Assembly (NCBI GenBank): GCA_965197675.1
Contig: OZ240221.1
Span: 2,268,669 to 2,332,668 of the forward strand
Length of the DNA: 64,000 nt
Reading direction: 5' to 3'
Source of the DNA: Dehalococcoidia bacterium
Lineage (GTDB): Bacteria; Chloroflexota; Dehalococcoidia; Plut-88900
Numbering within the stretch: the stretch's first letter is position 1; each line of letters begins with the position of its first letter. The position numbers were made by a program, and so were the translations under genes. Shown piece by piece: positions 11,196 to 36,645 of this stretch. Below the pieces are notes generated by a model. It worked only from the letters and a program-made list of their open reading frames with translations, had not been told where the DNA came from and did not search any database.

Positions 11196-12422
11196 ATGGC
11201 ATCAGCTATACATAATAATCTGACAAAGAAAGTAGTAAGCTTCCTAGCCAAAAGGTTGACCGCGAAGGCTGGAACTTTCATCAAGAGAGGTAGATTGTCT
11301 GTCGAGTTTCCCGACGGTAGTACCGCTAACCTTGGAAATCCCTCTGATCAACCTTCTGCCGACCTGAAGATCCATGACGAAAAGTTCTACAAACGGTTAC
11401 TCTTCGATGGCGAGATTGGGGTTTCCGAGGCGTATGTCGACGGCCTATGGACATCCGATGATCTGGCAAGTCTCTATGAGTTGGCCATCCTCAACAGGGA
11501 ACACATCAGCCCCAACTACTCCTGGCTTTCAAGACTGTCAAGGCTGCGCAACAGGTACTTCCATCTAGCAAGACGTAACACTCCATCCACCAGCAAGGAT
11601 AACATCCATGCCCACTACGATTTAGGCAACGACTTCTTTCGTTTATTCCTTGACGAGACCATGACCTATTCCTGCGCCGTCTTCTCGTCGGAGGGTGAAG
11701 ATCTGGCTGATGCACAACGCAATAAATACCTTCGGATATGTGAGAGGGCAGGCCTCATCCCGGAAGATCACGTTCTGGAAATCGGCTCGGGGTGGGGTGG
11801 ATTCGCCGTATTTGCGGCGCAGAATTATGGATCTAAGGTCACCACCATCACCATATCGAAGGAGCAGTTTGACCGAACAAAAAAGCTGGTCCAAGAGCTG
11901 GGCCTCTCGTCTCTGATAGACATCCAGCTGTGCGACTATCGAGAGGTAGAGGGCGAGTACGACAAGATCGTGAGTATCGAGATGTTCGAGGCGGTAGGAT
12001 ACGAATATTTCCAGACCTTCTTCCGCAAGTGCGATGCCGTGCTAAGGCATGGCGGACGCATGTGCATGCAGGTGATTACCATCCCCAATAGGTCCTTTGC
12101 TGCTCATCGTGATGGCGTCAACTGGCTTCAGAAGTATATATTCCCGGGAGGACTTCTACCATCTCTTGCCGAGATGGAGCGGTCATTATCTTCGACCTCG
12201 TTGCTGCTAACCCATGCCGAGGAAATCGGCGCCCATTACGTCCCCACCCTAAGGCGATGGAGAGAGCGTTTCCTTGCCAATCACAACGCGGTGCGAGACT
12301 TGGGCTTCGATGACAAGTTTATTCGAATGTGGGAGTGCTATCTAGCTTCATGCGAAGCAGCTTTTAGAGCCCGCTCCATTGGAGATGTCCAAATCGTCTT
12401 CGAAAAGCCCTCTTTTACTTAG
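11196..12422 (+). CDS. cfa: Cyclopropane-fatty-acyl-phospholipid synthase family SAM methyltransferase
   Basis: 408 aa; SAM motif VLEIGSGWGGFA; typical CMAS N- and C-terminal regions. Confidence 0.8.
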   Translation: MASAIHNNLTKKVVSFLAKRLTAKAGTFIKRGRLSVEFPDGSTANLGNPSDQPSADLKIHDEKFYKRLLFDGEIGVSEAYVDGLWTSDDLASLYELAILNREHISPNYSWLSRLSRLRNRYFHLARRNTPSTSKDNIHAHYDLGNDFFRLFLDETMTYSCAVFSSEGEDLADAQRNKYLRICERAGLIPEDHVLEIGSGWGGFAVFAAQNYGSKVTTITISKEQFDRTKKLVQELGLSSLIDIQLCDYREVEGEYDKIVSIEMFEAVGYEYFQTFFRKCDAVLRHGGRMCMQVITIPNRSFAAHRDGVNWLQKYIFPGGLLPSLAEMERSLSSTSLLLTHAEEIGAHYVPTLRRWRERFLANHNAVRDLGFDDKFIRMWECYLASCEAAFRARSIGDVQIVFEKPSFT

Positions 12423-15670: not shown

Positions 15671-17077
15671 CTATACGGTAGGCTCGATGTTCTGATTCAG
15701 AGAGAACAGGTTGGTGGGGTCATACTTGTTCTTCAACGCAACCAGCCGATCATATTTAGCCTGACCGTAGGCCTCCATGATTCGGTTGGCCCCCTCATCG
15801 GCCTGTCCGCCCATGTAGTTTACATAAACTGTTCCCGTCGAGAAAGGCTGTACTGCATCCCAGGTGTCTCTTACCCATTGGACATTCACGTCCTTATCCT
15901 TTGGATCGGACCACATGCCTAAGACAAGCAGATCGTAGCTGACATTTCGATGGTTGAAGGCGCTATCACTATCGTCTGGCCGGCTAACCGCCCCACCTAC
16001 ATTCTCTATTATCAGCATAGAGTTGGGCGAGGGTACTTTGCCGAATCTATCAACCAAGACGTCGATAGCGTCGTCGCTGAGGTCTTTCAGGAAGTTGGAT
16101 TTCCAGTAGTTCTGCTTCCCAGGTGGAAGGCCTGCTTCCAGCAGCCGCTGATGAGCAGTGTAGGGCATAGGGCCTACATGGTCCGCTACAGGTGGGCCAA
16201 ACTCTTTTAGGGGCTTCAGTTCGCGTTGGCCTTGCTCTAGACCGCCACAGTAACATGGCACCAGAGCAACAGCCGCATCACCCTCAGGCGAAGTTAGGAG
16301 AGCGGAGAATACCGTGAGCTCGTCGGGAGCTTTGCTGGTGAACTCTCTGTAGAACTTGAGAACATCCTTGGCACTACTCAAGGGGTGAATCACCAGCCCT
16401 CCTATCACGTTATCGACAGGGTGAAGCTGATATTCGAAGGATGTGACGACCCCAAAGTTGCCCCCGCCTCCTCTTATACCCCAGAATAGCTCGGCGTTCT
16501 CGGTGCGACTGGCTTTCAGCAGTTGACCATCAGCAGTGACGATATCAACGGAAAGAAGGTTATCAATGCTGAGACCGTACTTGCGCATAAGCCAGCCCAT
16601 ACCGCCACCGAGGGTGAGCCCAGCAATGCCCGTGGAAGGGATCACTCCTCCAGTAACAGCCAAGCCGAAGGCATGGGTCTCGTGGTCAAAGTCGGCCCAC
16701 GTCGCACCGGGCTCTGCCTGGGCCGTACGGTTGTCAGGGTCCACGCGCACGCTAGTCATTGACGCAAGGTCAATCACAATCCCACCATCACACACAGCAT
16801 TACCAGAGACGTTATGCCCCCCGCCTCGCACTGCGACCAGCAAGTTGTTCTCTCGAGCGAAATTGACCGCACTGATTACGTCGGCAACACCTGCGCAACG
16901 AACGATAAGAGCAGGCTTCCTATCGATCATGCCGTTCCAGACCTTGCGGTACTCGTCATATTTATCATCCCCGAGACTAACCAACTCACCTCGTAAACCG
17001 GTTTTCAAGGCGTCGATGGCCTCCTCTTGGAGGTTTACGTTAGAGCCCAACTTGGTGGTAATTTGTAAAGTGGCCAT
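15671..17077 (-). CDS. FAD-binding oxidoreductase (PCMH-type FAD domain plus BBE-like C-terminus)
   Basis: VAVRGGGHN FAD-binding motif; C-terminal KYDPTNLFSLNQNI berberine-bridge-like tail. Confidence 0.85.
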   Translation of the reverse strand: MATLQITTKLGSNVNLQEEAIDALKTGLRGELVSLGDDKYDEYRKVWNGMIDRKPALIVRCAGVADVISAVNFARENNLLVAVRGGGHNVSGNAVCDGGIVIDLASMTSVRVDPDNRTAQAEPGATWADFDHETHAFGLAVTGGVIPSTGIAGLTLGGGMGWLMRKYGLSIDNLLSVDIVTADGQLLKASRTENAELFWGIRGGGGNFGVVTSFEYQLHPVDNVIGGLVIHPLSSAKDVLKFYREFTSKAPDELTVFSALLTSPEGDAAVALVPCYCGGLEQGQRELKPLKEFGPPVADHVGPMPYTAHQRLLEAGLPPGKQNYWKSNFLKDLSDDAIDVLVDRFGKVPSPNSMLIIENVGGAVSRPDDSDSAFNHRNVSYDLLVLGMWSDPKDKDVNVQWVRDTWDAVQPFSTGTVYVNYMGGQADEGANRIMEAYGQAKYDRLVALKNKYDPTNLFSLNQNIEPTV

Positions 17078-17201
17078 TGATCCCCCCTGTAAACTTCTTC
17101 GATGTAATCAAGTGGGAGTATACATCCACCCCAAACCTTCATCAAGGACGTACAATTGCCCAAATCTCCCAGCTAAATGACCCTGTCCCATAATCCTGCA
17201 C

Positions 17202-17229
17202 GGAGGGAGTCCAGAGGCCTGCCTGCAGG
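17202..17229. repeat. Short repeat modules (GGAGGGAGTCCAGAGG + CCTGCCTGCAGG) shared with 26.3 kb and 54.2-54.8 kb loci
   Basis: A 15-nt exact match, GAGGGAGTCCAGAGG, to every unit of the 187-bp tandem repeat. The CCTGCCTGC..CAGG module also occurs at 26323-26341. Confidence 0.6.
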
Positions 17230-17414
17230 TCTCCTCGCCCAGGTAGATGTAGCCCCCAAACACAAGCGCGCCGGCTGGGGCGGGGACTACCTGCTATTGA
17301 CGCTTGCTCAGTAAAATGCGATTGCCCTGTCCGCCGAGCACATTCTGTTGCCAGACCCCCCGCAATTCGCGTCATTGACACTCGCCGATACGAGCAGCAT
17401 ACTTACTCCGTCGG

Positions 17415-20400
17415 GTGAGTCTGATTAGGGACGAGGAGAGGGCGGAGATGTCCAACTATGGACTGATCATAGCGGTCAGTGGGGTAGGCCTGCTTGTAAC
17501 CGCCCTAGTAGTCTTTCTAATCTTCCTGACGATCGACCCCTCTCCCGCCTCTGCCCACGTACTCTGCAGATATGGACCTCACAGCGACACCTGCAACCCT
17601 CACCCTCATACCCACACCCCCACGCCAGAGCCCACATCGCCACCACCGCCTCCGCCACCTCCGCCTCCGCCTGCATCTTCGCCTGAGATAGACATAGCTG
17701 GTCTACTCAGTTCCATACAGGAAGGGAGCAGCGACTCCTTCACAATGAGGGGCTCTAGTCTGAATTCATCCCACAGCTACTCCATACGGGTCGAGGCGAG
17801 CAACAGCGACATAGGCTTCAACAGTTCGTGTTCCGACACTTCTGAAACCGCCGCGGTTCCCTCGAACCGTACGTCGTACAGCACGACCTTCACGCTGTAC
17901 GGGTGCGACACGTCCGGCGGTACGGTGACTGCGACCCTGCGCCGCTCCTCGCGTTTCAGCACCGTGACCGTCGATACTGACTCGCAGTTCGTGAGTGTAA
18001 CCGCACCTCCAGCTGCACCTGCGCCCACCGGGCTCACAGTTACCTCATCTGATCGGTACAGCGTCTCCCTGAGTTGGAGATCGGTCTCTGACGCCTACCG
18101 CTACAAGCTGGAGCGTCGTGAGGGGACATCCGGGTCATGGTCAACGATCAGCTCCGGCATCAGCGGCACCAGCGTGACGGCGGGCGGTCTCGACTGCAAC
18201 ACCACCTACTATTTCAAGGTGAGTGCGCGCGGCGATGGCTCGCCCTACTCCACTACCTTTGGCGGAGCTTCGGGGAGCGTGTCGAGGACGACCTCCGAGT
18301 GTCAAACTGCTCCCGCGCCCACCGGGCTCACGGTTACTTCATCTGATCAGGACAGTGTTGCCCTGAGTTGGAGCTCGGTCTCCGGCGCCTACCGCTACAA
18401 GCTGGAGCGTCGTGAGGGGACATCCGGGTCATGGTCAACGATCAGCTCCAGCATCAGCGGCACCAGTAAGACGGCCACCGGCCTCGACTGCAACACCACC
18501 TACTATTTCAGGGTGAGCGCGCGTGGAGACGGCTCGCCCTACTCCACTACCTTTGGCGGAGCTTCGGGGAGCGTGTCGAGGACGACCTCCGAGTGTCAAA
18601 CTGCTCCAGCGCCCACCGGACTCACGGTTACCTCATCTGATCGGTACAGCGTCTCCCTGAGTTGGGACTCGGTCTCTGACGCCTACCGCTACAAGCTGGA
18701 GCGTCGTGAGGGAACCTCTGGGTCATGGTCAACGGTCAGCTCCAGCATCAGCGGCACCAGCAAGACGGCCACCGGCCTCGACTGCAACACCACCTACTAT
18801 TTCAGGGTGAGCGCGCGTGGAGACGGCTCGCCCTACTCCACTACCTTTGGCACCCCGTCGACAACCGACGTATCGAGTCAAACCGATGCTTGCCTGCCCG
18901 TCTTCCAGTTCTCGCCCAGCCCCCTGGCATTGGGCGGCTCAAGCAACGTCTGGACGGTGCCCGCGGAGGTCACCAGCGTCTACGTGGACGTCAGCTTCTC
19001 CAGCGGATTCGTCAAGGACACCGGTGCGGGCGACATCGAGATCAACCGCGTCGACTCCTCCGACACGGTGCTGAGCACGCTGGAGGTGGACAATGAGAAC
19101 GACAGCGGGACGTTGATGGGCGCTGCGGCGGGGTCGCTCATAAGAATAGACGTTGAAAACGATGCCTTCGACACCAGCTACGCCCTCGTGACCCTGACCT
19201 TCCACTCAGGCAGCGACGACACCGGGCCGGAGCTAGCGAGGGCAACTGTACAGAAGGAGTCGAGACCGTACTCGCCGACTGCACCCAGCACCGGCACGTC
19301 GTGGAGTGTGGACGATGCCGCGGGGAGCGTTACACTATCCTGGGGCCCGGGAGCGGCCCGTCTGGGGTCTAACCCTGACCATTACGAGGTAGTGATACGG
19401 GACGCTTCGAACCCATCGACGCCGCTATACAGCAACCTGAACGTAGATGATTCCGCGAACCCCACTACGCTGACCATATCGGGCGCCAGGACGCTGGGCC
19501 TGGAGGGAACCCACACCGCCGAGGTGCGTCATTGCAACACCGCCGGCGGGTGCTCGCTCCCCTTCAGCATCACCTTTACACTGGCGCCTCTGCCCGACGT
19601 GTCAGCGCCCACCCTCAGCGTCGACTCCTCCACCGACACCGCCATAACCCTGAGCTGGAACTCGGTCACCGGCACGTCCAAATACAGGCTGGAGCGAAGG
19701 ACGTCCGGCAGCCGCCCCATTGCCGACCCTTGGATCGAGGTCGACCCTGAAATCCCCAGCATCAGAACCAGCCACACGGCGGACGGTCTCGCAGGAGGAA
19801 CAGCCTACGATTTCCAGGTGAGTGCATACGGTGACGGGGAGACCCACGCCTCGAAATGGGGCCCCTGGTCGACGACCTTCGAAGCGTCCACTCTGCCGTC
19901 ACCAACGATAAGCATATCAGGGGTTGACACCTCCCTGGGCGACTCTGATACAGAGGACTCCAACGACATCTTCACGGTAACAGCATCCAACCTGATCTCA
20001 TCCTCTACCTACTCCATCACCGTTTCAACCGACAACGACAAAGCGGCCTTCGACTCCGCATGCTCCGAGAGATCGAAGAGCGTGACCTTCACAGCAACCA
20101 GCGCCTCCTACACCACTACCTTCACCCTGTATGCCTGCCGGCCCGGCGACGTAGTGGTTACTGCTTCCCTCGGAGACGCCAGCAGCGCCTCCGCAACGCA
20201 AAATGTGACCATTGCCACGCGGACGATTCCCGCATCAGATGTCTGCGACGACGGCACCGTGGTCTCCGATCACACGTCCAATCCGGGTCTGGTCAGCGAC
20301 TGCGAGAACCTTCTGCTGGCGATAGGCACCCTGAAGGGGACTGCCAACACCGCGCTCAACTGGAGCAGCACCAGAGTCCTCTCGGACTGGGATGGGGTTA

Positions 20401-21746
20401 CCGTCAGCGGCAGCTCCAACCGCGTCACTAAGCTGGAGCTGAGCGGCAGGGGCCTTGCGGGCAGTATACCGGCGGGGTTGCAGAGTCTGGCTAACCTACA
20501 GACCCTCGACCTCTCCAACAACCAACTCCAGAACAACCCCTCACCCTCGGATGTTGCCATTCCGAACATGCGGCTCGAATCTCTAGTCACTCTGGACCTT
20601 TCCAACAACCAGTTAGACGGATCTATACCATCCGATCTGGATTCCTACTTCAGGAATCTGGAAAGCCTGGACCTATCTGACAACGACTTCACAGGGTCTA
20701 TACCCTCGGACCTGAGTGATCTATCGAGTCTCACCACTCTCAACCTTTCCAACAATCAGTTAAGCGGGTCAATACCCTCGGAATTGGGCGACCTCTCCGC
20801 CCAGGTTAGGTTATCCTTGGACGGCAACTCGCTCACCGGCTGCGTACCCGCCAGCGTGTGGCACCTGTCCAACAGCGATTCTCAAACCCTCGGGCTGTCG
20901 GTCTGTTCACCGGAACTGTCCTCTGTTGGAACACGGTGGGACTGCCCCGTAGCTACGAATCTAGATTCTTACAATGATGGTCGCAACATAGCTACTGGTT
21001 GGACCAATGATCGCGCATACCATAAGGCAGAGACAGACATCTACAGGGGTCTCTCTCTGAGTACCATGGCGGCCCTGTTAACCAATCCCGATGCTCCACG
21101 AAGCTACTGTCTATACGCTGTGGTCTCGAATGCATCCACCCGTCCCGTCACAACCACGCTGACCGGTACCGTTTACTCGGATGACCTAAACGACGTTGTT
21201 TCCGACAGCGTTTCCAGGGAGGGCTCAGGCGAGGAGCCCTGCACTAATGAGCCCACATGCATCTGGAAAAGCCACACGATGACCACCCCTCCCCAGGTTT
21301 CCACATTACCTATATCGAGCATACCGGATCTTGCGCTTTGGGCTTACGGCACCCATCAGATAACTTCCGGAGGTCAGACCATCACAGTCCGCACCTCCAG
21401 GGGATACACATATAGGACTCTTCTGTGGGAGCAACCCGTCCCGCCCCATGCCCCAGTAGCGTTCGCTGCGACGACAGTAGGAGCTTCCAGCGTCACCCTA
21501 GACTGGACGGTAGAGAGCGGGGTGGCCAAGTACCGGGTGGAGAGAAGCCCCAACGGCACGGATAGCTGGACTATACTAAGCTCGGAGATTACGACTGTGC
21601 CTTACACGGCGGCGGCTCCGGACTGTGAAACGACCTATGACTTCAGGATAAGAGCATTGGGTGACGGTGCTGCGTACCGTGCATCATGGGGGCCGCTCTC
21701 CGGGCCCATATCGACAACGACTACCGCGTGTCCCCCTAGCGAATAG
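17415..21746 (+). CDS. Giant membrane-anchored surface protein: N-terminal TM, poly-Pro stalk, two copies of an unknown Ser/Thr-rich domain, at least six FN3 domains, plant-type LRR module, unknown domain, C-terminal FN3
   Basis: 1443 aa. TM helix YGLIIAVSGVGLLVTALVVFLIFL, then PPPPPPPPPPP. FN3 signatures L.W..V..A..Y.LERR...W...TTYYF.V.A.GDG. LRR repeats L..LDLSNNQL.GSIPS.L..L. Confidence 0.85.
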   Translation: MSLIRDEERAEMSNYGLIIAVSGVGLLVTALVVFLIFLTIDPSPASAHVLCRYGPHSDTCNPHPHTHTPTPEPTSPPPPPPPPPPPASSPEIDIAGLLSSIQEGSSDSFTMRGSSLNSSHSYSIRVEASNSDIGFNSSCSDTSETAAVPSNRTSYSTTFTLYGCDTSGGTVTATLRRSSRFSTVTVDTDSQFVSVTAPPAAPAPTGLTVTSSDRYSVSLSWRSVSDAYRYKLERREGTSGSWSTISSGISGTSVTAGGLDCNTTYYFKVSARGDGSPYSTTFGGASGSVSRTTSECQTAPAPTGLTVTSSDQDSVALSWSSVSGAYRYKLERREGTSGSWSTISSSISGTSKTATGLDCNTTYYFRVSARGDGSPYSTTFGGASGSVSRTTSECQTAPAPTGLTVTSSDRYSVSLSWDSVSDAYRYKLERREGTSGSWSTVSSSISGTSKTATGLDCNTTYYFRVSARGDGSPYSTTFGTPSTTDVSSQTDACLPVFQFSPSPLALGGSSNVWTVPAEVTSVYVDVSFSSGFVKDTGAGDIEINRVDSSDTVLSTLEVDNENDSGTLMGAAAGSLIRIDVENDAFDTSYALVTLTFHSGSDDTGPELARATVQKESRPYSPTAPSTGTSWSVDDAAGSVTLSWGPGAARLGSNPDHYEVVIRDASNPSTPLYSNLNVDDSANPTTLTISGARTLGLEGTHTAEVRHCNTAGGCSLPFSITFTLAPLPDVSAPTLSVDSSTDTAITLSWNSVTGTSKYRLERRTSGSRPIADPWIEVDPEIPSIRTSHTADGLAGGTAYDFQVSAYGDGETHASKWGPWSTTFEASTLPSPTISISGVDTSLGDSDTEDSNDIFTVTASNLISSSTYSITVSTDNDKAAFDSACSERSKSVTFTATSASYTTTFTLYACRPGDVVVTASLGDASSASATQNVTIATRTIPASDVCDDGTVVSDHTSNPGLVSDCENLLLAIGTLKGTANTALNWSSTRVLSDWDGVTVSGSSNRVTKLELSGRGLAGSIPAGLQSLANLQTLDLSNNQLQNNPSPSDVAIPNMRLESLVTLDLSNNQLDGSIPSDLDSYFRNLESLDLSDNDFTGSIPSDLSDLSSLTTLNLSNNQLSGSIPSELGDLSAQVRLSLDGNSLTGCVPASVWHLSNSDSQTLGLSVCSPELSSVGTRWDCPVATNLDSYNDGRNIATGWTNDRAYHKAETDIYRGLSLSTMAALLTNPDAPRSYCLYAVVSNASTRPVTTTLTGTVYSDDLNDVVSDSVSREGSGEEPCTNEPTCIWKSHTMTTPPQVSTLPISSIPDLALWAYGTHQITSGGQTITVRTSRGYTYRTLLWEQPVPPHAPVAFAATTVGASSVTLDWTVESGVAKYRVERSPNGTDSWTILSSEITTVPYTAAAPDCETTYDFRIRALGDGAAYRASWGPLSGPISTTTTACPPSE
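18010..18891 (+). repeat. Three in-frame tandem 294-bp (98-aa) near-identical FN3-coding repeats inside the giant gene
   Basis: The anchor GCGCCCACCG recurs at 18021, 18315 and 18609 (period 294). Protein units APAPTGLTVTSSD..SWSTISS.ISGTS.TA.GLDCNTTYYF.VSARGDGSPYSTTFG differ at only a few residues. Confidence 0.9.
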
Positions 21747-21772
21747 GAACCTTAAAGAAAGCGAGAACTTGT

Positions 21773-22621
21773 ATGAGCATGCTTAGCGTGAAAACTCACC
21801 CCAAGCTGGCGTTCGGACTGCTGGTTATCGTCGCAGCGGGAATGGCTGGTCTTCTATGGTGGCTGATCCCCACTTCAGGTGGCGGCCGCGTTGACGCCCT
21901 TGCCGTCATCGAGGATGCCTGCTCGTATTCTAGTGAAGTAACATCTTACGACGCCACCGAACGCGGCACCTTCGACGGAGGCGTTGAATATTCATGGGTT
22001 GCTGAAACTCGCGTTAACAACATGGATTCCCACACCATAACCTACGATGAACAAGGTCTGGAAAGGGCTGAAGTAATTTACATAGCCTCCTTCGGCACCT
22101 ACACCCGGTACACCAACGAGCAGGGGGAATGGGGGGAATGGGTGGTGCAGCCATTCCCTGAGATCTTCTTGCAAGCTACTCCCGAATCCAATCCTTCGCC
22201 GGGTTCGGAGTCTAATCCGTCTCCGGGCTCCGAGGAAGACTCTGGGGTGGGACCCGTGGGCCAGGTCGATGAGACGATAACTGGTACTTCAAGGTTTTGC
22301 GGTTGGGAAGACTTGGTCAACGTCAGATACGTGGAAGATACCAGGGTGAACGATACCCCGGTTAAGCATTTTTCCGCTTCCATAGATCCGGAGTTGATCG
22401 GGGGAGGTGGAAACTACGAGAACTACGAGTACTGGGTGGACGAAGACGGAGGGTTAATCCAGTTCAAATGGGACGTCTTCTTCGATTCAAGAGGCGGGAG
22501 GCAGGAGGAGAGAGCGACTAGAACGGTCACCGCCTCCGGTCACGGAGAACCCAACGTCATCACCGCCCCGGTTGCACTCACCCCAACCCCAACCTCAACA
22601 TCAGGGTCCACCGTTCCCTAG
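21773..22621 (+). CDS. Signal-anchored paralogue 1 (LprG/LolA-like C-terminal half), type A
   Basis: 282 aa. N-terminal KTHPKLAFGLLVIVAAGMAGLLWWLIP helix, W(G/E)EW motif, acidic Pro/Gly linker, C-terminal FCG...VKHFSA..DPELIGGG..YE.WEYWVDE.G...GHGEPNVITAP. Confidence 0.8.
   Translation: MSMLSVKTHPKLAFGLLVIVAAGMAGLLWWLIPTSGGGRVDALAVIEDACSYSSEVTSYDATERGTFDGGVEYSWVAETRVNNMDSHTITYDEQGLERAEVIYIASFGTYTRYTNEQGEWGEWVVQPFPEIFLQATPESNPSPGSESNPSPGSEEDSGVGPVGQVDETITGTSRFCGWEDLVNVRYVEDTRVNDTPVKHFSASIDPELIGGGGNYENYEYWVDEDGGLIQFKWDVFFDSRGGRQEERATRTVTASGHGEPNVITAPVALTPTPTSTSGSTVP
22184..22231 (+). repeat. 2 x 24-bp in-frame duplication (ESNPSPGS x2) in the linker of paralogue 1
   Basis: Direct reading; paralogue 5 carries a single copy of the same segment. 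Confidence 0.8.
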
Positions 22622-22855
22622 CCATGGTAAGGGAGAGCCATCCTGAGAGCTCATCTAAAGCTGACGTTCGGACTGCTGGTTATCGTCGCAGCGGGAATAG
22701 CCGGTCTTCTATGGTGGCTCATCCCGTCCTCCGGTGGCGGTACTGTTGATGCCCTTGCCATCATCGAGGACGCCTGCCGACAGGCCGAAGCCGTAGATTC
22801 AGTAGACATAACCGTCCGAGGAACTAACACTCTGGGCGATGCAACACTCAAAGTT

Positions 22856-23482
22856 GTGGAGGAGTACCGCGTCAATGGACGAGACTGGCACAAGGCCATA
22901 TACGATGACCAAGGCAACTTATTGGCTGAGGTCTTCCTTGTGGACTACCATAGCTATGCCCGCGAAATCAACGAGGAGGGCCAATGGGGGGAATGGGAGA
23001 TATCAGCGCCACCTCAGGTGCTCTTGGAAGCGCTGGAGTCCAACTCCGAACCAGGCTCGGACGTAGGACCCACTGGCCAGGTCGATGGTTCGGATGTAGG
23101 GCCTACAGACCTAGTCGATGGTTCGGACGTAGGGCCTACAGGCCAGGTCGATGATCCGCCCGGCGGGGCTGAGACCTTCTGTGGCCTTTGGGATCTGCTG
23201 GACGTGACCTACCTGGGAGAGGGAATGGTGGGCGATACGGACGTCAAGCATTTTGCCGTGGAGGTCAACGAAGACTTGCCCGGAGAGGACGATTCCTACG
23301 AGAAATGGGAATACTGGATCGACTCCAATGGAAGGATCCTCCAAATCAAAGATGAAGTGTTCAAACCGGACGATTACGGGCCGTCCCAAAGGGTGGAGGC
23401 TACTACTACCTACCACGGGTTTGGAGAACCGAACGTCATCACCGCCCCGGACGTTCCCATCCCCGACGACTCCACCCCTTGA
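22856..23482 (+). CDS. Paralogue 2 (type B); the first canonical start is internal, and the open frame with the family signal-anchor extends upstream to 22631
   Basis: The frame is open from 22631 and encodes ..RAHLKLTFGLLVIVAAGIAGLLWWLIPSSGGG.., homologous to the N-termini of the other copies. It has no ATG/GTG/TTG before 22856. Confidence 0.6.
   Translation: MEEYRVNGRDWHKAIYDDQGNLLAEVFLVDYHSYAREINEEGQWGEWEISAPPQVLLEALESNSEPGSDVGPTGQVDGSDVGPTDLVDGSDVGPTGQVDDPPGGAETFCGLWDLLDVTYLGEGMVGDTDVKHFAVEVNEDLPGEDDSYEKWEYWIDSNGRILQIKDEVFKPDDYGPSQRVEATTTYHGFGEPNVITAPDVPIPDDSTP
23057..23155 (+). repeat. 3 x 33-bp in-frame tandem repeat (SDVGPTGQVDG-type) in the linker of paralogue 2
   Basis: Units start at 23057, 23090 and 23123. 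Confidence 0.85.
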
Positions 23483-23509
23483 TTATGTCCCGCTGAAGGA
23501 GCGCGGTGT

Positions 23510-24316
23510 GTGAGTATAGCTAAAGTGAAAACTCACCCCAAGCTGGCGTTCGGACTGCTGGTTATCGCTGCAGCGGGAATAGCCGGGCTCCTGTGGTGGC
23601 TCATCCCCACCTCCGGCGGCAGCCTCGTCGATGCTTCTGCCATAGTAAGAGACGCTTGCCAACAGGCCCAAGTCGAGGAAGCAGTGGACGTCACCATCCA
23701 GGGTTCAAGGACCAGCAGAGACTCGGCAATCAAGACGGTAACAGAGCTTCGAGCTAGCGGCCAAGACTTTCACCAGATCACCTATGATTCCAATGGCGTT
23801 GCCAGGGGTGAATGGATCATTCTCGACAACTGGGACTACTCTAGGGAAGCCAACGAGAACGGAGTATGGGGGGAGTGGGTGGTACAGAAGTTGCATGGAA
23901 CTGAGCCGGACCCCTTAGCACAGGAGGAGCCAGACCCTACTGGAACCGAGGCGGACCTCTTATTACAGGGGGAGCCAGGTCCCACTGGAACCGTTGATGA
24001 TGCGCCTTCAACAGGTGGGCCAGCGACGTTCTGTGGTATGGGTGGTCTGCTCGACGTCACTCACTTGGGAAATGCCAGGGTGGATAATACCCCAGTCAAG
24101 CACTTCTCCGCTCACGTAGACCCGGAGCTGATTGGGGGAGGGGACAACTACGATAGATACGAATTCTGGGTGGACGAAGGCGGTACGCTGCTGCAAGCCA
24201 AAGCGGATATCTACAGAGATTCGCGAGGAGGACTGCCAGAACACAGAGTGGAGTATACCGCTACTTACTCCGGTCATGGAGAACCCAACGTCATCACCGC
24301 CCCTGAGATTCCCTGA
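23510..24316 (+). CDS. Signal-anchored paralogue 3 (type C)
   Basis: 268 aa, same architecture as the other copies; nearly identical to paralogue 4 after residue 40. Confidence 0.8.
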   Translation: MSIAKVKTHPKLAFGLLVIAAAGIAGLLWWLIPTSGGSLVDASAIVRDACQQAQVEEAVDVTIQGSRTSRDSAIKTVTELRASGQDFHQITYDSNGVARGEWIILDNWDYSREANENGVWGEWVVQKLHGTEPDPLAQEEPDPTGTEADLLLQGEPGPTGTVDDAPSTGGPATFCGMGGLLDVTHLGNARVDNTPVKHFSAHVDPELIGGGDNYDRYEFWVDEGGTLLQAKADIYRDSRGGLPEHRVEYTATYSGHGEPNVITAPEIP

Positions 24317-24375
24317 ACAGTGAAGCGGGAAAATGACGCTGCACAGCCATACCCTGACCTTGAGAGAGGCACTAT

Positions 24376-25182
24376 GTGAACATGGTTAGCGTCAGAGCTC
24401 ATCCCAAGCTGGCGTTCACATTGGTGGTCGCCGTAGTAGTCGCAATGACCGGGATCCTGTGGTGGCTCATCCCTAACTCAGGTGGTGATGCCGTCGATGC
24501 TTCTGCCATAGTAAGAGACGCTTGCCAACAGGCCCAAGTCGAGGAATCAGTGGACGTCACCATCCAGGGTTCAAGGACCAGCAGAGACTCGGCAATCAAG
24601 ACGGTAACAGAGCTTCGAGCTAGCGGCCAAGACTTTCACCAGATCACCTATGATTCCAATGGCGTTGCCAGGGGTGAATGGATCATTCTCGACAACTGGG
24701 ACTACTCTAGAGAAGCCAACGAGAACGGAGTATGGGAGGAGTGGGTGGTACAGAAGTTGCATGGAACTGAGCCGGACCCCTTAGCACAGGAGGAGCCAGA
24801 CCCTACTGGAACCGAGGCGGACCTCTTATTACAGGGGGAGCCAGGTCCCACTGGAACCGTTGATGATGCGCCTTCAACAGGTGGGCCAGCGACGTTCTGT
24901 GGTATGGGTGGTCTGCTCGACGTCACTCACTTGGGAAATGCCAGGGTGGATGATACCCCTGTCAAGCACTTCTCCGCTCACGTAGACCCGGAGCTGATTG
25001 GGGGAGGGGACAACTACGATAGATACGAATTCTGGGTGGACGAAGGCGGTACGCTGCTGCAAGCCAAAGCGGATATCTACAGAGATTCGCGAGGAGGACT
25101 GCCAGAACACAGAGTGGAGTATACCGCTACTTACTCCGGTCATGGAGAACCCAATGTCATCACCGCCCCTGAGATTCCCTGA
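24376..25182 (+). CDS. Signal-anchored paralogue 4 (type C')
   Basis: 268 aa. Differs from paralogue 3 mainly in the TM-anchor region, plus A/S, G/E and N/D changes. The start could be the ATG at 24382. Confidence 0.8.
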   Translation: MNMVSVRAHPKLAFTLVVAVVVAMTGILWWLIPNSGGDAVDASAIVRDACQQAQVEESVDVTIQGSRTSRDSAIKTVTELRASGQDFHQITYDSNGVARGEWIILDNWDYSREANENGVWEEWVVQKLHGTEPDPLAQEEPDPTGTEADLLLQGEPGPTGTVDDAPSTGGPATFCGMGGLLDVTHLGNARVDDTPVKHFSAHVDPELIGGGDNYDRYEFWVDEGGTLLQAKADIYRDSRGGLPEHRVEYTATYSGHGEPNVITAPEIP

Positions 25183-25241
25183 ACAGTGAGGCGGGAAAAT
25201 GACGCTGCACAGCCATCCCCTGACCTTGAGAGAGGCGCTAT

Positions 25242-26093
25242 GTGAAAATGGTTAACATGAAGATTCATCGCAGGCTGGCGTTTGGGTTAGCGGTTATCGT
25301 CGCAGTGGGAATAGCCGGTCTTCTATGGTGGCTGATCCCCACCTCCGGCGGCAGCCTCGTCGATGCTCAGGCCATCATCGAGGACGCCTGCTCGTATCCT
25401 TCAGATGTATCGTATGCTTCAGATGTAATCTCATACGATATCACCGAACGAGGCACAAAAACTGCCTTAGACGGCGACGGTGAGTATTCATGGGTTTCGG
25501 AAATCCGTGTTAACGGCTTGGATTCCCATACCCTAACTTACTCCGAACAAACGGGCGGAAGAGCTGAAACCATTTACATAGCCTCCTTCGGCACCTACAT
25601 CCGTGAGACCAACGAGCACGGTGAATGGGGGGAATGGCAGGTGTATGCCTTCCCTGAGATCTTTATGCAGCCGACTCCCGAATCCAATCCTTCGCCGGGC
25701 TCCGAGGAAGACTCTGGAGTGGGACCCGTGGGCCAGGTCGATGAGACGATAACTGGTACTTCAAGGTTTTGCGGTGCAGATAATCTGGTCAACGTCAGAC
25801 AACTGGAAGATACCAGGGTAAACGACACTCCGGTTAAGCACTTCTCCGCCTCTGTAGACCCGGAACTGATCGGGAGAGGGGACAACTTTGAGAACTGGGA
25901 GTACTGGGTGGATGAAGACGGTAGAGCCATTCAGGTGAAATGGGACGTCTTCTTCGATTCAAGAGGAGGAAGGCGGGAGGAGAGAGTAACCAGAACGATT
26001 ACCGTCTCCGGATACGGAGAACTCAACGTCATAACTGCCCCGGTTGCACCCACCCCAACCCCAACCCCAACCTCAGGGTCCACCGTTCCCTAG
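25242..26093 (+). CDS. Signal-anchored paralogue 5 (type A')
   Basis: 283 aa, closest to paralogue 1. The linker and FCG region are near-identical at the DNA level. Confidence 0.8.
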   Translation: MKMVNMKIHRRLAFGLAVIVAVGIAGLLWWLIPTSGGSLVDAQAIIEDACSYPSDVSYASDVISYDITERGTKTALDGDGEYSWVSEIRVNGLDSHTLTYSEQTGGRAETIYIASFGTYIRETNEHGEWGEWQVYAFPEIFMQPTPESNPSPGSEEDSGVGPVGQVDETITGTSRFCGADNLVNVRQLEDTRVNDTPVKHFSASVDPELIGRGDNFENWEYWVDEDGRAIQVKWDVFFDSRGGRREERVTRTITVSGYGELNVITAPVAPTPTPTPTSGSTVP

Positions 26094-26155
26094 CCAGAGC
26101 GGGAGGTTTTGCATTAGCCTCGCTGGTCTCGAAGTAGGCAAGGGTCTACACGACA

Positions 26156-26245
26156 ATGGTTAACATGAAGCTTCATCCCAGGCTGGCGTTTGGATTGGTG
26201 GTTATCGTCGTGGCTGGAACTGGAGCTATAGACCCAAGGCCCTAG
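26156..26245 (+). pseudogene. Truncated sixth copy of the paralogue family (N-terminal anchor only)
   Basis: MVNMKLHPRLAFGLVVIVVAGTGAIDPRP*. The first ~20 codons match the N-terminus of paralogue 5 (MVNMKIHRRLAFGLAVIVAVG). Similarity then stops and a stop codon follows. Confidence 0.7.
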
Positions 26246-26322
26246 GCAGCGTTAGAGTCCTTCAGAGAAGCCACGGCCGCTTGGTACTATCTACTTAGTC
26301 CCAGCCCCCTTCTCCCCACCCG

Positions 26323-26453
26323 CCTGCCTGCTGCAGGCAGGTCATTCCCGTGCTTGACACGGGAATCCACCTCCCTCTGGTTGGGGGGTGGGGGCCTGTC
26401 CTGAGTCCCTCGAAGGGACGTGCCTCCATATACAAAAACTTACCAGGGGGCGG
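26323..26453. repeat. REP-like cluster of perfect hairpins plus a segment homologous to the 3' part of the 187-bp tandem repeat unit
   Basis: Hairpins: CCTGCCTGC-T-GCAGGCAGG (26323-26341), ATTCCCGTG-CTTGA-CACGGGAAT (26344-26366), GTCCC-TCGAA-GGGAC (26405-26419). TCCCTCTGG..GGGGGG..TGGGGG..CC-ATATACAAAAACTTACCAGGGGGCGG parallels TCCCTCTGGCGGGGGGCTTGGGGGGCGTCCCCCCATATCCAAAACCTACCGAGGGCGG at 54.5 kb. Confidence 0.7.
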
Positions 26454-26502
26454 TTGGGGAACAGGGCGTTTGCCTTTCCGGAGACAGGCTCCTTAGTCCA
26501 AT

Positions 26503-28467
26503 CTAACGGAAGATGGTGACTGCTATGGGAAAGTGGTCCGAGGCCTGGCTCTGGGGTATGGAGAAATCAGAGACTTGTAGGTCGGGAGACACCCAGATAT
26601 AGTCTATCCGCTGGTGGGGACTGTCAGACGCGGAGGTGAATCCCTTCCCCTCTGCTCCCGACGCTATGAAAGCATCCTTAAGCCCGGCATCTTCTAGCAA
26701 CGTTATCTCGGGGTCCCACGGACGGCCATTGAAGTCACCCAACATGATAGTATTGGATACACCATTCCAGAAATCCACGAGAGCCTTAGACTGAGGGATT
26801 CGGTGCTCGCCTTCATCCTCGCCCGCATGAAGATGAGTCGCTATTATCCTGAGCGGCAGGTCATCGCCCACGTCAACCTCGGCCAAAATGAACCCCCTGT
26901 CTATGGTGATATCCGAGTTGTTGGGCATATCGTGGGTCTCGCTGCCAACTATAGGATAGCGACTAAGTAGAGCATTCCCCCATAGGGAGTCGGCAGTAGG
27001 CCCTGAAACGTATTTCATGTCGAGACGCTGGGACAACCAGTCCAGCATGTCCACAGCATCATTGATGAGCCATCCTCTCGAAACCTCCTGGAGTGCGATT
27101 ATGTCGGGATCTTCCGCCTCTATCACCTTGGCTAAGTCCTCCATCACCAACCTTCCTTCGACGTCAAAGCCGGCATGCAGGTTGTAGGCCATCACCCTAA
27201 CCGGTAGGCCGTTTCCTTGGGTAACCGAGGCGTCATTCCACCCAACAAAATAGACCGGGGGCAGTACCAAAAGGGCTAGAGGTACAAGAACCGCCCACCT
27301 TATGCGCGGCCATTCCGATTTGATCCACGATTTTCCACGACTCCAAATGCCGGCAAGGGCCAGTACACCTGCCGCTACAGGAGGAATGACTTCTCTTGGA
27401 AAGGGCAAGCCGATGTCAAACGCCACATAAAAGAGAAAGACCAGAGTGACAAAGAGGATCAAACCCAACCCGACTCCTAAATCCAATCTTGAATCGTAGC
27501 TTGACCCCGCTCTCTTCTCCGCAGAGGTCACGATAGGTACTAGCAGCAGGGCCAAGGCTAGCTGACCGAATAAGACCACCAGGGCGGCCTGGATTCCAGA
27601 TCGCTCCCCAACAACGGCCAGGACCAGCAGCACACCGAGAAATAGCTTAATAAGGGATGGTACGGGCCTATCCAGCCTAGTCAACACCAGAATGCCAACC
27701 ACACCAAACAGATTGGCCGCTACTATCCACGTATAAACCGCCGGCTGAGGCCAATCAATGAGCACCGTCTGCTGACCTATGTTCTGAAACAGCAAAAGGT
27801 CAAGAAGAAGAATGGAGCCTATGGATATCAGGGGTAAAAAAGAGGAGCCGGGAGTCAGAGTTGGCTGCGGGTCAGTCTCAGGAGAGGCAGACATTGTGAA
27901 GCTACCTCTGACCAGAGGCGTGATGAGGAGTAGCTGGCCGGCAAAGAGAATTATCGTGACCAGGTCGGCAGAGAATCCGGCATACCAGGTGACGTCCAGA
28001 GTACCAAAGACACCCTTCGCGGCAGTGTCCACCGATATCCCCAAGAATAGGGCTAAAACCCACGAGACTCCCCCTTCAGGCCCTCTCGATCGAAAATGAT
28101 GTAGGGAGATCGGAAAGAACCACAAAAACAAAACAGTGCCGATGATTGCCAGGCATAGATCGGCGGGAGATGAGTAGATGAACTGCTCGACTAGTCGCAC
28201 GAGCCCCAGTGTGAAAGCCGTCAGGGCAAAGGAGGATTTAATGCCTATGCACCGCCGAATGATGGGGGCAAGAAACACCGTAAAGAAGACCGCAAAGGCG
28301 ATCCCTCCCAAAAATAACGTCGACAAATCTTTGACTTCTCGCAGATAGTAGACCAGCTCTACAATCAGAAGTCGAAGCATCTGCAGGCCAAAGGTAAAGG
28401 TCAGTATAGAAAGGAGGATGGGATTACTGGGGGACCAAGCTTGGGGGTTTCTAAGCAGGCCAATCAT
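26503..28467 (-). CDS. Polytopic membrane protein fused to a C-terminal endonuclease/exonuclease/phosphatase (EEP) domain
   Basis: 654 aa. About 400 aa of repeated hydrophobic helices, then an EEP domain (VMAYNLH...IIALQEV...SDHFPI). Confidence 0.75.
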   Translation of the reverse strand: MIGLLRNPQAWSPSNPILLSILTFTFGLQMLRLLIVELVYYLREVKDLSTLFLGGIAFAVFFTVFLAPIIRRCIGIKSSFALTAFTLGLVRLVEQFIYSSPADLCLAIIGTVLFLWFFPISLHHFRSRGPEGGVSWVLALFLGISVDTAAKGVFGTLDVTWYAGFSADLVTIILFAGQLLLITPLVRGSFTMSASPETDPQPTLTPGSSFLPLISIGSILLLDLLLFQNIGQQTVLIDWPQPAVYTWIVAANLFGVVGILVLTRLDRPVPSLIKLFLGVLLVLAVVGERSGIQAALVVLFGQLALALLLVPIVTSAEKRAGSSYDSRLDLGVGLGLILFVTLVFLFYVAFDIGLPFPREVIPPVAAGVLALAGIWSRGKSWIKSEWPRIRWAVLVPLALLVLPPVYFVGWNDASVTQGNGLPVRVMAYNLHAGFDVEGRLVMEDLAKVIEAEDPDIIALQEVSRGWLINDAVDMLDWLSQRLDMKYVSGPTADSLWGNALLSRYPIVGSETHDMPNNSDITIDRGFILAEVDVGDDLPLRIIATHLHAGEDEGEHRIPQSKALVDFWNGVSNTIMLGDFNGRPWDPEITLLEDAGLKDAFIASGAEGKGFTSASDSPHQRIDYIWVSPDLQVSDFSIPQSQASDHFPIAVTIFR

Positions 28468-28499
28468 TTTCTGGATGATGAAAGTGGACCACCGAGGGG

Positions 28500-28901
28500 C
28501 TAGGAACTGTTTCCCCGCGGCTTCATGTTTTCTAGATCCCTAAGGCGTTCATCGCTGATTCCAAAATGGTGAGCAATCTCGTGATAAAGCACGTCACGTA
28601 TCTCGCGCTCCATCTCTTCATCGGAGTGACAGATGCCTTCTATGGGCCTTTGGAAGATGCTGATTTTATCCGGCAGAACGCCGCCGTAGTGAGAACCGCG
28701 CTCTACCAAGGGTACGCCCTCATATAGTCCCAGTAGATGCCTTCGACTCCGCAGGCCAACCTCAGCCAGTTGTCCCCGGGTGGGCCAGTCCTCGACTACT
28801 ATGTCGACGTTTTCTATTCGTTCTTTGAATTCCTTGGGCAAAGAAATCAGAGCTCTCTCCAGAATATCCTCGAACCTGTTCCTATCCATAGCTTGATACA
28901 C
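28500..28901 (-). CDS. Small zincin-like metallopeptidase family protein
   Basis: 133 aa with a HEIAHHFG zinc-binding motif. Confidence 0.7.
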   Translation of the reverse strand: MYQAMDRNRFEDILERALISLPKEFKERIENVDIVVEDWPTRGQLAEVGLRSRRHLLGLYEGVPLVERGSHYGGVLPDKISIFQRPIEGICHSDEEMEREIRDVLYHEIAHHFGISDERLRDLENMKPRGNSS

Positions 28902-28972
28902 TCAACAACAATAACTCGCTTACAAAGTGATAGATTCAAGTCCATATCCGAGAATCGCCTGAGTCTCGAAAA

Positions 28973-29113
28973 CTACGCTATACCGATGCGCGACGTTTTG
29001 GCTACACGGGTATAGCATAGGTCTCGAGCAGGTGGCCGGCCGTTTTTCGTGGTGATGTGGGTAAGGTTCTTCACCTCATGGGATATTCGACATTTGACGC
29101 AGTGAGCCTGCAT
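28973..29113 (-). CDS. 46-aa DUF5679-like mini zinc-ribbon protein (below the ORF-track size cut-off)
   Basis: GGAGGAG lies 4 nt upstream of the ATG at 29113. Translation: MQAHCVKCRISHEVKNLTHITTKNGRPPARDLCYTRVAKTSRIGIA. The pattern CVKC...KNGRP...C..(C)...RIG matches my memory of the DUF5679 family. Confidence 0.5.
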   Translation of the reverse strand: MQAHCVKCRISHEVKNLTHITTKNGRPPARDLCYTRVAKTSRIGIA

Positions 29114-29188
29114 ATACTCCTCCGATGTCCGGGCTGCACCTGTTCTACGATAACAAAGTCATCCGAAGTAACCTATCAGAGTAAAATC

Positions 29189-30058
29189 TCATGAGGAATT
29201 AATGCCGTAGGAAATGTCGTTTTCTTTTGCATCATCCGGCTTCAGGGGAGGATCGAGTCTGACCAGGTGTTCCTTAGAAAGCAAACCGTTGCGCAATGCA
29301 TCGGGCCACCAGGAGAAGGGGTCTCCACCCACTAACTGGGTACGATGACACATAATCGCATCCCGCTTCTTTTCTGAGTAGTTGCTCACCTCTAGAAAGG
29401 TTGTGATCTCCTCGTCTGGCACCCCTAATCCCTCGGCATCTACATCTGACAAGGCGGAGTGGATGCCGGCGTCCTTCATAGCCTGGCGGAACAACCTGGC
29501 CATGCTCCTGGGAAAGGCGAAATAGTACAACCTGTTAGCTTGGTGAGGCTGCAATCCGCCAGCTAGTTGCTCGGAATACTTGAGCGGATCAGAAGAGGTA
29601 AAGTACGCTTCCTTTGCCGCCTTGTGCATCGATATATGGTCGGGGTGCCCGTAACCGCCCTTGGGATCGAAGGTGACGATAACCTGTGGCCTCACTTGAC
29701 GAACGATTTGCACTATCTTGCCCACAACCTCCGTCCAGTCGGCCTGGCTAAGAGACGACGGGTGATAGTTGTCATCGACACCTGCCATGCCAGAGTCCCA
29801 ATAACCCAACAGATGGATCCATTTGACGCCCAGGACCTCACAGGCTGCCCGAAGCTCCTGCTCTCTCACTTCGGCGAGGTTTTCAGGAGTAGCCAGATTG
29901 GAATCGTTTATCTCACCAACCTCGCCCCGAGTGGCGCAGATAAGAGTGACTTCTACCCCCTCGGCGGAGGACTTGGCCAACAAGCCTCCACAGCCAAAGG
30001 TTTCGTCATCGGGATGAGCAGTAACGACTAGCAGGCGTCTTTGAGGTTGTTCACCCAT
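29189..30058 (-). CDS. PIG-L/LmbE family deacetylase
   Basis: AHPDDE and HPDH motifs. I prefer the ATG at 30058 (MGEQPQRRLLVVTAHPDDE). The track ORF runs to 30103. Confidence 0.8.
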   Translation of the reverse strand: MGEQPQRRLLVVTAHPDDETFGCGGLLAKSSAEGVEVTLICATRGEVGEINDSNLATPENLAEVREQELRAACEVLGVKWIHLLGYWDSGMAGVDDNYHPSSLSQADWTEVVGKIVQIVRQVRPQVIVTFDPKGGYGHPDHISMHKAAKEAYFTSSDPLKYSEQLAGGLQPHQANRLYYFAFPRSMARLFRQAMKDAGIHSALSDVDAEGLGVPDEEITTFLEVSNYSEKKRDAIMCHRTQLVGGDPFSWWPDALRNGLLSKEHLVRLDPPLKPDDAKENDISYGINSS

Positions 30059-30187
30059 GGAAATCTCAGTCCGGATGATAGCGCAGCCTGAGCTAACCGT
30101 CAAAGCCAGGGGCGAGCACAGTGGCTTGTGATGAGTTTCTCCCTATAGTAGAATAGCAACACACCCGATGTATTTTCGGAGGAGACT

Positions 30188-35769: not shown

Positions 35770-35795
35770 CTTGTGAGGGAAGAGGGTATCATCGT

Positions 35796-36545: not shown

Positions 36546-36645
36546 GTTAGCATCGCAAGGTCACGCCAACAACAATCACTCCTGTGCTAAAATAGGATCA
36601 ACCACCCTAAATACCATCGGAACCCTACCCAACGGTAAACAGCCA

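Follow-up and report, generated by a model that had tools for sequence, protein, structure and literature searches.

A strain-variable surface locus in a Dehalococcoidia genome pairs a stalked FN3/LRR protein with a tandem array of divergent LprG-superfamily proteins

In mycobacteria and diderm bacteria, proteins with the LprG/LppX/LolA fold are known to carry lipids and lipoproteins, and in the lprG-rv1410c type the carrier gene forms an operon with the gene for a major facilitator superfamily (MFS) transporter. We analysed a stretch of 64,000 nt of OZ240221.1 from a Dehalococcoidia genome (the window; all coordinates are window positions) in which a cassette at 17415-26245 encodes a giant surface protein followed by five tandem paralogues of LprG-like type and the remnant of a further copy. 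This locus is a strain-variable surface operon that combines a stalked protein with fibronectin type III (FN3) and leucine-rich repeat (LRR) domains with an array of exported, divergent proteins of the LprG superfamily. In a literature search, neither LprG-like proteins from Chloroflexi nor arrays of this kind next to eukaryotic-like proteins were found to have been described, in line with an earlier note on this DNA, whose author knew of no described system with this pairing.

Other described systems resemble parts of the locus. Sponge symbionts are enriched in genes for FN3 and LRR proteins, FN3 genes being especially abundant in Chloroflexota (Robbins et al. 2021, PMC8163846). The giant is similar to these eukaryotic-like repeat proteins in that it carries FN3 and LRR domains together with an N-terminal transmembrane (TM) segment and is encoded in a Dehalococcoidia genome. 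In that literature, however, such proteins (LRR, FN3, cadherin) are treated singly, and the papers searched describe no LprG-like array alongside them. A second parallel is the lpl tandem lipoprotein cluster in the Staphylococcus aureus island nuSa-alpha, in which the evolving unit is offset from the boundaries of the open reading frames (ORFs; Tsuru and Kobayashi 2008, PMC2568036).

The five paralogues form one family with 45-92% amino acid identity to each other. They share an N-terminal hydrophobic segment, the motif WGEW, an acidic insert, the motif FCG and the C-terminal sequence GEPNVITAP, which agrees with the family of anchor, W(G/E)EW, acidic linker, FCG and conserved C-terminus that the earlier note had outlined. 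None of the five copies matched a Pfam family, including PF07161 (E <= 1), and all five weakly matched lipo_SCO4651 of NCBIfam with their C-terminal part; among 44 relatives, a single one reached the PF07161 model (E 0.0022). An AF2 model of paralogue C, with pLDDT values (predicted local distance difference test) of 80-90 in the folded parts, consists of a helix at residues 42-55 and 11 strands, with residues 131-174 disordered. When this model was compared with the PDB by Foldseek, LprG (3mh8) was the first match (E 6.4e-9), followed by LprF (4qa8) and LppX (2byo; TM-score 0.62) and, further down, by LolA, RseB and LolB (E 1e-6 to 1e-4). Using hhalign, we matched the 44-sequence family alignment over the whole domain (186 columns) to 20 genuine PF07161 proteins, which included the LprG-like protein encoded at 35796-36545 of the window, with 97.0% probability and E 8.7e-11. 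The LprG/LppX/LolA-like fold that had been proposed for the paralogues was thus recovered by both structure and profile comparison. Profile methods also recovered the proposed C-terminal register with the protein encoded at 35796-36545, whereas BLASTP of a paralogue against that protein gave no alignment. Against this single LprG-like sequence the family profile scored E 0.041, and it found no matches among PDB sequences. On the profile and model evidence, the paralogues are remote homologues that constitute a divergent, unnamed, Dehalococcoidia-restricted branch of the LprG/LppX/LolA superfamily.

With LppX, LprG, LprA and LprF (PF07161) the array proteins share the fold and a homology that covers the full domain, from the N-terminal helix to the C-terminal end '...G/D-E-P/A-V-x-I-x-A-P'. 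Both groups are extracytoplasmic, and true lipoproteins also occur among the relatives of the array proteins. Unlike PF07161 proteins, the array proteins are not recognised by the Pfam model, and no lipobox is present in the window copies; an acidic disordered insert of 43-60 amino acids and a conserved Cys pair take the place of the cavity-mouth helices. Moreover, the array lies beside the gene of a large repeat protein, and there is no transporter gene in 17415-26245. The insert is rich in Pro, Gly and Ser, contains 0-1 basic residues and directly precedes one conserved Cys; in the hhalign alignment it occupies the position of the LprG segment that lies between the halves of the sheet and forms the helical mouth of the cavity, which in LppX_LprAFG proteins binds acylated lipids or glycolipids. 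Cys50 and Cys175 were invariant in an 8-sequence alignment of the close family, and across the 44 distant members Cys175 was invariant and Cys50 was present in at least 90%, which fits an extracytoplasmic, disulfide-stapled protein. Also invariant across these 44 were D60, W220, N260, I262 and P265.

The half-barrel superfold is shared with LolA/LolB and RseB/MucB, which are more distant from the array proteins than LprG is. Shielding of acyl chains outside the membrane, as in these proteins, would apply in general to the array proteins too. LolA and RseB are soluble in the periplasm, whereas a hydrophobic segment at the N-terminus of the array proteins is a putative anchor, and RseB/MucB has two domains whereas each array protein has a single LolA-like domain of ~230 amino acids and no second one. 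LolA and LolB work with LolCDE in diderms, and RseB/MucB is encoded next to sigma-E and anti-sigma genes. Among the neighbouring genes in the window, no LolCDE-type ABC genes adjoin the array, and no sigma or anti-sigma genes were found among its neighbours. By analogy with the known carriers and given the modelled fold, the paralogues may bind a hydrophobic ligand.

We also identified what by its sequence is a classical lprG-rv1410c-type pair in the same window (34264-36545, - strand). It consists of an LppX_LprAFG lipoprotein gene at 35796-36545 (PF07161 E 5.7e-17; lipobox-like 'AYAC') and, directly downstream, an MFS transporter gene at 34264-35769 (MFS_1 E 2e-46). A gene for a PlsY-type glycerol-3-phosphate acyltransferase (36517-37302) is the divergent neighbour of the pair. 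The presence of the canonical pair elsewhere in the window indicates that the array is an additional, specialised expansion.

An exhaustive scan of 1.84 billion proteins with the family hidden Markov model (HMM) yielded 311 cluster representatives at E <= 1e-3; a word-indexed protein search with one paralogue had returned 6 clusters only. A hydrophobic N-terminal segment was present in 135 of 159 relatives, and in 24 of these 135 (~18%) it was accompanied by a lipobox, as in P0002 (LISC). The window copies have no Cys behind the hydrophobic segment, hence no lipobox, and most likely an uncleaved signal anchor keeps them attached to the membrane. The earlier description of the paralogues as signal-anchored therefore stands for the hydrophobic segment, and is less firm for the anchoring itself, given the share of relatives with a lipobox and the possibility of a cleavable signal. 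Some relatives are larger: P0155 (674 amino acids), P0008 (501), P0016 (521) and P0050 (716) contain at least two fused family domains, and P0102, P0117, P0156 and P0157 (372-404 amino acids) have an extension of ~120 amino acids without a Pfam match. No known additional Pfam domain was found in these fused or extended relatives (372-716 amino acids).

All genes of the cassette lie on the + strand. The giant gene (17415-21746; 1443 amino acids) starts with GTG at 17415, with an alternative ATG at 17448, and directly 5' of it is a candidate promoter at 17375-17403 (+ strand; sigma-70-like TTGACA-17-CATACT, by consensus match only). The array consists of paralogues A (21773-22621, 282 amino acids; family HMM E 3e-94), B (22624-23482, body ORF 22631-23482; E 9e-94), C (23510-24316, 268 amino acids; the modelled copy), C' (24376-25182, 268 amino acids) and A' (25242-26093, 283 amino acids), and ends in a remnant at 26156-26245, which comprises 29 codons with the N-terminal hydrophobic segment only and is 81% identical to the 5' end of A'. 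The spacers between the genes measure 26, 27, 59, 59 and 62 nt. ORF calls and spacers confirmed the claimed layout of seven co-oriented frames separated by 26-62 nt, and together with the pairwise identities also the order A-B-C-C'-A'-remnant. A search for terminator-like sites on the + strand of 16900-26700 found none, which is consistent with a single transcription unit. Rfam and tRNA scans of the whole window were empty.

Paralogue B deviates from the other copies. A 10-nt insertion just behind its ancestral ATG at 22624 (22624-22650) puts this codon out of frame, and in the body ORF 283 codons including the TM segment and the full domain are intact. No canonical in-frame start was found ahead of the TM segment, and the longest canonical ORF begins at GTG 22856. 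To judge from its sequence, B would be either a very recent pseudogene or a user of a non-canonical start. It was missing among the matches to the family in the protein-database search, suggesting that no full-length gene was called there. The statement that each protein of the cassette begins with a TM helix thus applies to the hydrophobic segment, which is encoded in all five copies, but B has no intact in-frame start for it. Repeat modules thought to bracket the cassette (17202-17229 and 26323-26453) did not withstand scrutiny: they share only a short palindromic motif, which had 9 matches against 4.9 expected, a number reached in 5 of 100 shuffles. Inverted repeats were sought at the cassette borders, and nothing notable was found.

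The N-terminal part of the giant comprises a TM anchor, a poly-Pro stalk (residues ~60-90), a domain termed X (88-205) and three FN3 domains (206-493). Then follow an unclassified region (494-625), an FN3-like region (626-733), a further FN3 domain (734-826), a second copy of domain X (836-955), an LRR block with N-cap (964-1165), another unclassified region (1166-1352) and a C-terminal FN3 domain (1353-1439). Pfam detected fn3 in five stretches (E 6e-40) as well as LRR_1 (E 1e-17), LRR_4 and LRR_8, and an HMM built on the repeats of the protein itself placed FN3 domains at 206-303, 304-401, 402-493, 734-826 and 1353-1439. TM segment, poly-Pro stalk, FN3 and LRR are thus all present as described before, with five FN3 domains certain and the sixth (~626-733) FN3-like by eye only. 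The best PDB sequence matches of the LRR block (~964-1165) were the plant LRR receptor kinases GSO1, FLS2, PEPR1 and ERL1, which bears out its designation as plant-type. The two copies of domain X have 42% identity, and the AF2 model is a 7-strand beta-sandwich with generic Ig/macroglobulin-like (MG-like) matches only; two of the three domains that had been counted as unclassified are therefore copies of a single one. Residues 1166-1352 had no match among PDB sequences. From its predicted domains, the giant looks like a membrane-anchored, Pro-stalked, adhesin-like 'eukaryotic-like' protein.

We compared the window with a conspecific genome (L002). The flanks of the cassette were 98.5% identical at the nucleotide level, and five flanking genes had 98-100% protein identity with synonymous divergence (dS) of 0.015-0.07. 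Within the cassette, the giant was 81% identical (dS 0.42) and the paralogues were 45-73% identical (dS 0.5-2.2). The ratio of nonsynonymous to synonymous divergence (dN/dS) was 0.2-0.4 throughout, and no segment exceeded 0.63, indicating that the genes are functional and under purifying selection. The excess divergence is also present at synonymous sites, which points to replacement by divergent alleles through recombination and not to fast positive selection in situ. The 98.5% identity resumes at 26169, inside the remnant, and this position marks the right border of the variable island. The array of the window has five family copies, that of L002 has three and that of L003 at least two, and dS varied 5- to 10-fold among segments within single genes, indicating a mosaic history. 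The acidic insert, which the earlier note had taken to be a uniformly hypervariable linker, proved to be 96% identical between A and its counterparts in L002 and L001 and differs only between allele types.

Within the array, C and C' have 93% nucleotide identity overall and 60-76% at their 5' ends. A tract of 748 nt (23638-24385 and 24504-25251) contains only ~10 differences (~98.7% identity) and extends from behind the TM-coding part via the stop codon and the 59-nt spacer into the first codons of the next gene. From its sequence, this tract is the product of a recent duplication or gene conversion. A and A' are more divergent (74% nucleotide and 78% amino acid identity; dN/dS 0.28). Ongoing duplication and gene conversion, as suggested earlier for the array, are supported by the C/C' tract, the copy-number differences between strains and the mosaic dS. 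The S. aureus lpl cluster (PMC2568036) is similar in being a strain-variable island of tandem exported lipoprotein-type paralogues with copy-number differences and recombination between conserved segments, and also in that the unit spans the 3' part of an ORF, the spacer and the 5' part of the next ORF. It differs in belonging to an unrelated family (the paralogues have no match to DUF576 or any other Pfam family) and to another phylum, and no giant adhesin has been described at the head of the lpl operon.

The near-identity of C and C' over ~750 nt, the missing in-frame start of B and the truncated remnant at the end of the array might suggest an assembly artefact or a set of pseudogenes. A polymorphic toxin, defined by a variable C-terminal toxin domain and by downstream cognate and orphan immunity genes, was considered as well. 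We find these explanations hardly credible. The different 5' ends of C and C' (60-76% identity) make both junctions unique and an artefact unlikely, and independent assemblies from other samples contain the same cassette with three or at least two copies. The dN/dS values reflect purifying selection and not decay. In place of a toxin domain the giant ends in an FN3 domain (1353-1439), and the downstream proteins have export signals, one fold and homology to LprG. The toxin, artefact and pseudogene-array readings were rejected on account of the FN3 end, the unique junctions and the purifying selection, respectively.

The same variation could mean that the cassette provides a variable surface coat and nothing else, with the LprG fold as a stable scaffold that carries no lipid and a co-location that reflects a shared island of surface proteins. 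The proteins would then be exposed and diversifying, and host or phages would recognise them or be evaded by them. Very high divergence between conspecific strains that is confined to the cassette, copy-number change and mosaic recombination are what such a coat would produce, and the analogy to the lpl cluster (PMC2568036) points in the same direction. So do the replacement of the cavity-mouth region by a type-specific disordered acidic insert and the occurrence of family members in transposase-rich islands and beside terminase and portal genes. However, dN/dS of 0.2-0.4 with no segment above 0.63 is not a signature of positive diversifying selection, and the invariance of the core fold and of D60, W220, N260, I262 and P265 in the 44 distant members argues for a conserved biochemical function. 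We regard a mere coat as quite unlikely.

To survey the distribution of the family, genome loci were located by the back-translated GEPNVITAP motif, and members were then identified by the family HMM. The motif search returned 19 genome loci, nearly all in Dehalococcoidia metagenome-assembled genomes; the invariance of GEPNVITAP in these loci is circular, since they were located by this very motif. Tandem arrays with 2-4 copies were frequent (L004, L005, L007, L008, L018 and L019), and there were several loci per genome. A metagenome scan with the same motif gave seven loci, four of them with family members.

Two close relatives of the window organism, L002 and L003, have retained the arrangement of giant and array, and in about one third of independent loci a family gene directly adjoins the gene of a stalked surface repeat protein. 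A co-oriented FN3 protein gene overlaps the start of the family gene in L010/L040, an FN3/PKD protein gene adjoins it with a 4-nt overlap in L012, and a CARDB protein gene does so with a 2-nt overlap in L015/L041. Collagen-RCC1 lipoprotein genes adjoin the family gene in the same orientation in L014/L021. In L019/L039, an LRR gene lies upstream of the family genes and genes of an RCC1 lipoprotein and a 1813-amino-acid FN3/PPC protein lie downstream. All that these neighbouring repeat proteins have in common is an anchor at the N-terminus (TM or lipobox) and, in several of them, a Pro-rich stalk. In 18 GTDB loci (L004-L022 without L020), FN3/LRR similarity to the giant was found in 3 of 35 ORFs adjacent to family genes and in none of 95 non-adjacent non-family ORFs, a modest difference (Fisher p = 0.018). 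In L001 a lone family member lies amid metabolic genes, and other members lie in transposase-rich islands. The association of the family with large anchored repeat proteins in Dehalococcoidia is recurrent but facultative. The pairing of giant and array that the earlier note had emphasized is accordingly conserved in L002 and L003 and has analogues in distant genomes, but many family members have no such neighbour.

Several loci showed further features. A large island of surface-protein genes in another Dehalococcoidia chromosome (OZ244716; L039 1-18985) encodes an LRR protein of 636 amino acids, an LRR protein of 818 amino acids with a poly-Pro stalk, two family paralogues, the RCC1 lipoprotein (666 amino acids) and the FN3/PPC protein. 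Small FN3 ORFs occur inside or just after family arrays (L004 5885-7275 / L042 7267-9203; L021 151-432), and in L004 an FN3 ORF lies behind a family ORF with one in-frame stop between them, which may represent a fusion, a readthrough product or a decayed gene. Relatives of 382-383 amino acids are encoded in islands rich in transposases, where Cadherin-like genes, FN3 genes and an AbiE toxin-antitoxin pair lie nearby. At two loci (L011 3271-4011 / L035 10001-10741; L013 5474-6274 / L036 9950-10750), a lipobox family member is convergent to and right after genes for a large terminase subunit and an SPP1-type portal protein; with UvrD helicase and M16 peptidase genes in the wider flanks, these loci look like prophage remnants with a family gene at the edge.

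Lipobox family members after terminase and portal genes in L011/L035 and L013/L036, together with the hypervariability of the locus between strains, would fit a phage-related role, in which the giant repeat proteins would serve as surface receptors and the exported LprG-like proteins would bring about superinfection exclusion by masking or modifying these. This seems very improbable to us. The flanks of these loci are of housekeeping type, with no further phage genes recognised, and the loci are prophage remnants at best. The exact DNA motif coding for GEPNVITAP had no match in IMG/VR viral contigs, a search that covered the motif and not the family, and a BFVD fold search was uninformative, with only weak uncharacterised matches. 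We know of no superinfection exclusion protein with an LprG-like fold.

A further reading, in the line of the earlier note, is a dedicated two-part apparatus of giant and carriers in physical cooperation. The giant would attach to the surface of a host or particle, and the carriers would extract or deliver lipids or other hydrophobic substrates, or else chaperone or anchor the stalked protein. The operonic layout with a spacing of 26 nt and no internal terminator would suit such an apparatus, as would the start-stop overlaps between repeat-protein and family genes in L010, L012 and L041 and the recurrence of the theme with four different ectodomain types. Giant and array also co-diverge as a single block between conspecific strains, and the tandem-fused domains of P0155 and P0050 suggest a multi-unit function. 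On the other hand, most family loci are without the pairing, the type of partner domain is not conserved, no common docking module was found beyond the anchor and the Pro-rich stalk, and the adjacency statistic is modest. We consider this apparatus possible but rather unlikely.

In our view, the locus is explained best, with a likelihood slightly better than even, as a strain-variable surface cassette in which LprG-like modules that bind hydrophobic ligands are deployed alongside stalked proteins. The paralogues keep the LprG half-barrel and would act as extracytoplasmic modules for a lipid, lipoglycan or acyl chain, deployed at the cell surface along with the stalked surface proteins. There they might handle lipids of the envelope or the host, or the lipid anchors of neighbouring surface proteins. 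The array grows, shrinks and is reshuffled via unequal recombination and gene conversion among its copies, and strains exchange the whole cassette of giant and array in the form of divergent alleles, which is what one would expect of surface structures under host or phage selection. Gene structure, homology and fold, export signals, the recurrent pairing, allelic hypervariability and purifying selection are all observed here, whereas ligand binding, tethering, any cooperation of the paralogues with the giant and the selective agent are inferred.

Several points weigh against this explanation. Where LprG has the lining of its cavity mouth, the array proteins have the insert, and the pocket may be lost or repurposed. 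Lacking a lipobox, the window copies could be cleaved by signal peptidase I and secreted. The giant has a TM anchor and not a lipid anchor, which weakens the version in which the paralogues handle acyl chains of their neighbour. With the canonical LprG-MFS pair ~10 kb away, the array is dispensable for the classical LprG role, and roughly two in three family loci lack a neighbouring gene for a large repeat protein, so that a partnership is not obligatory. Finally, the two metagenome contigs with family members that derive from the sponge Petrosia ficiformis give the source of relatives and not that of the window. The bacterium is probably host-associated. A bolder form of the cassette explanation, which we hold to be unlikely, is that in sponge-associated Dehalococcoidia the lineage-specific LprG-like expansion is the dedicated partner of stalked eukaryotic-like adhesins (FN3, LRR, RCC1, CARDB), with LolA-fold modules that would bind lipids of the host or the envelope, or adhesin anchors, in a hitherto unrecognised, recombination-diversified apparatus for contact between symbiont and host.

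Other genes around the cassette are noted here for completeness. Directly downstream of the array, the - strand of 26503-30103 carries three genes. Their products are a protein of 654 amino acids with ~10 TM segments and a C-terminal EEP/PGAP2IP-like domain, a Zincin_1 protein and a PIG-L family deacetylase, and of these names two are associated with eukaryotic glycosylphosphatidylinositol (GPI)-anchor metabolism. These genes are 98-99% identical between strains, which places them outside the variable island, and were not seen beside the family in other genomes. The window otherwise contains mostly genes for amidohydrolases and short-chain dehydrogenases, together with a CMAS-type cyclopropane-fatty-acid synthase (11196-12422), a BBE-type FAD oxidase (15671-17077) and a peptidase S58, and the L001 contig carries hydantoinase, luciferase-like monooxygenase and amidohydrolase genes. 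We take this metabolic profile of the window and L001 to be typical of SAR202-like Dehalococcoidia.

The enrichment of FN3 and LRR proteins in sponge symbionts was known before (PMC8163846); what is new is an unnamed LprG/LolA subfamily with a new architecture and genomic context. It constitutes a large superfamily branch in Dehalococcoidia that is absent from Pfam and has ~300 cluster representatives. The branch is distinguished by a remodelled cavity mouth, by tandem arrays and by repeated coupling to 'eukaryotic-like' adhesins that are thought to mediate the association of symbionts with sponges. Deeply divergent alleles within one species (dS 0.4-2.2, compared with 0.02-0.07 in the flanks) make the cassette useful for strain tracking and for studies of selection in host-associated Chloroflexota. 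If the coupling to adhesins is functional, it would help to explain in concrete terms how surface proteins are built or used by these uncultured symbionts.

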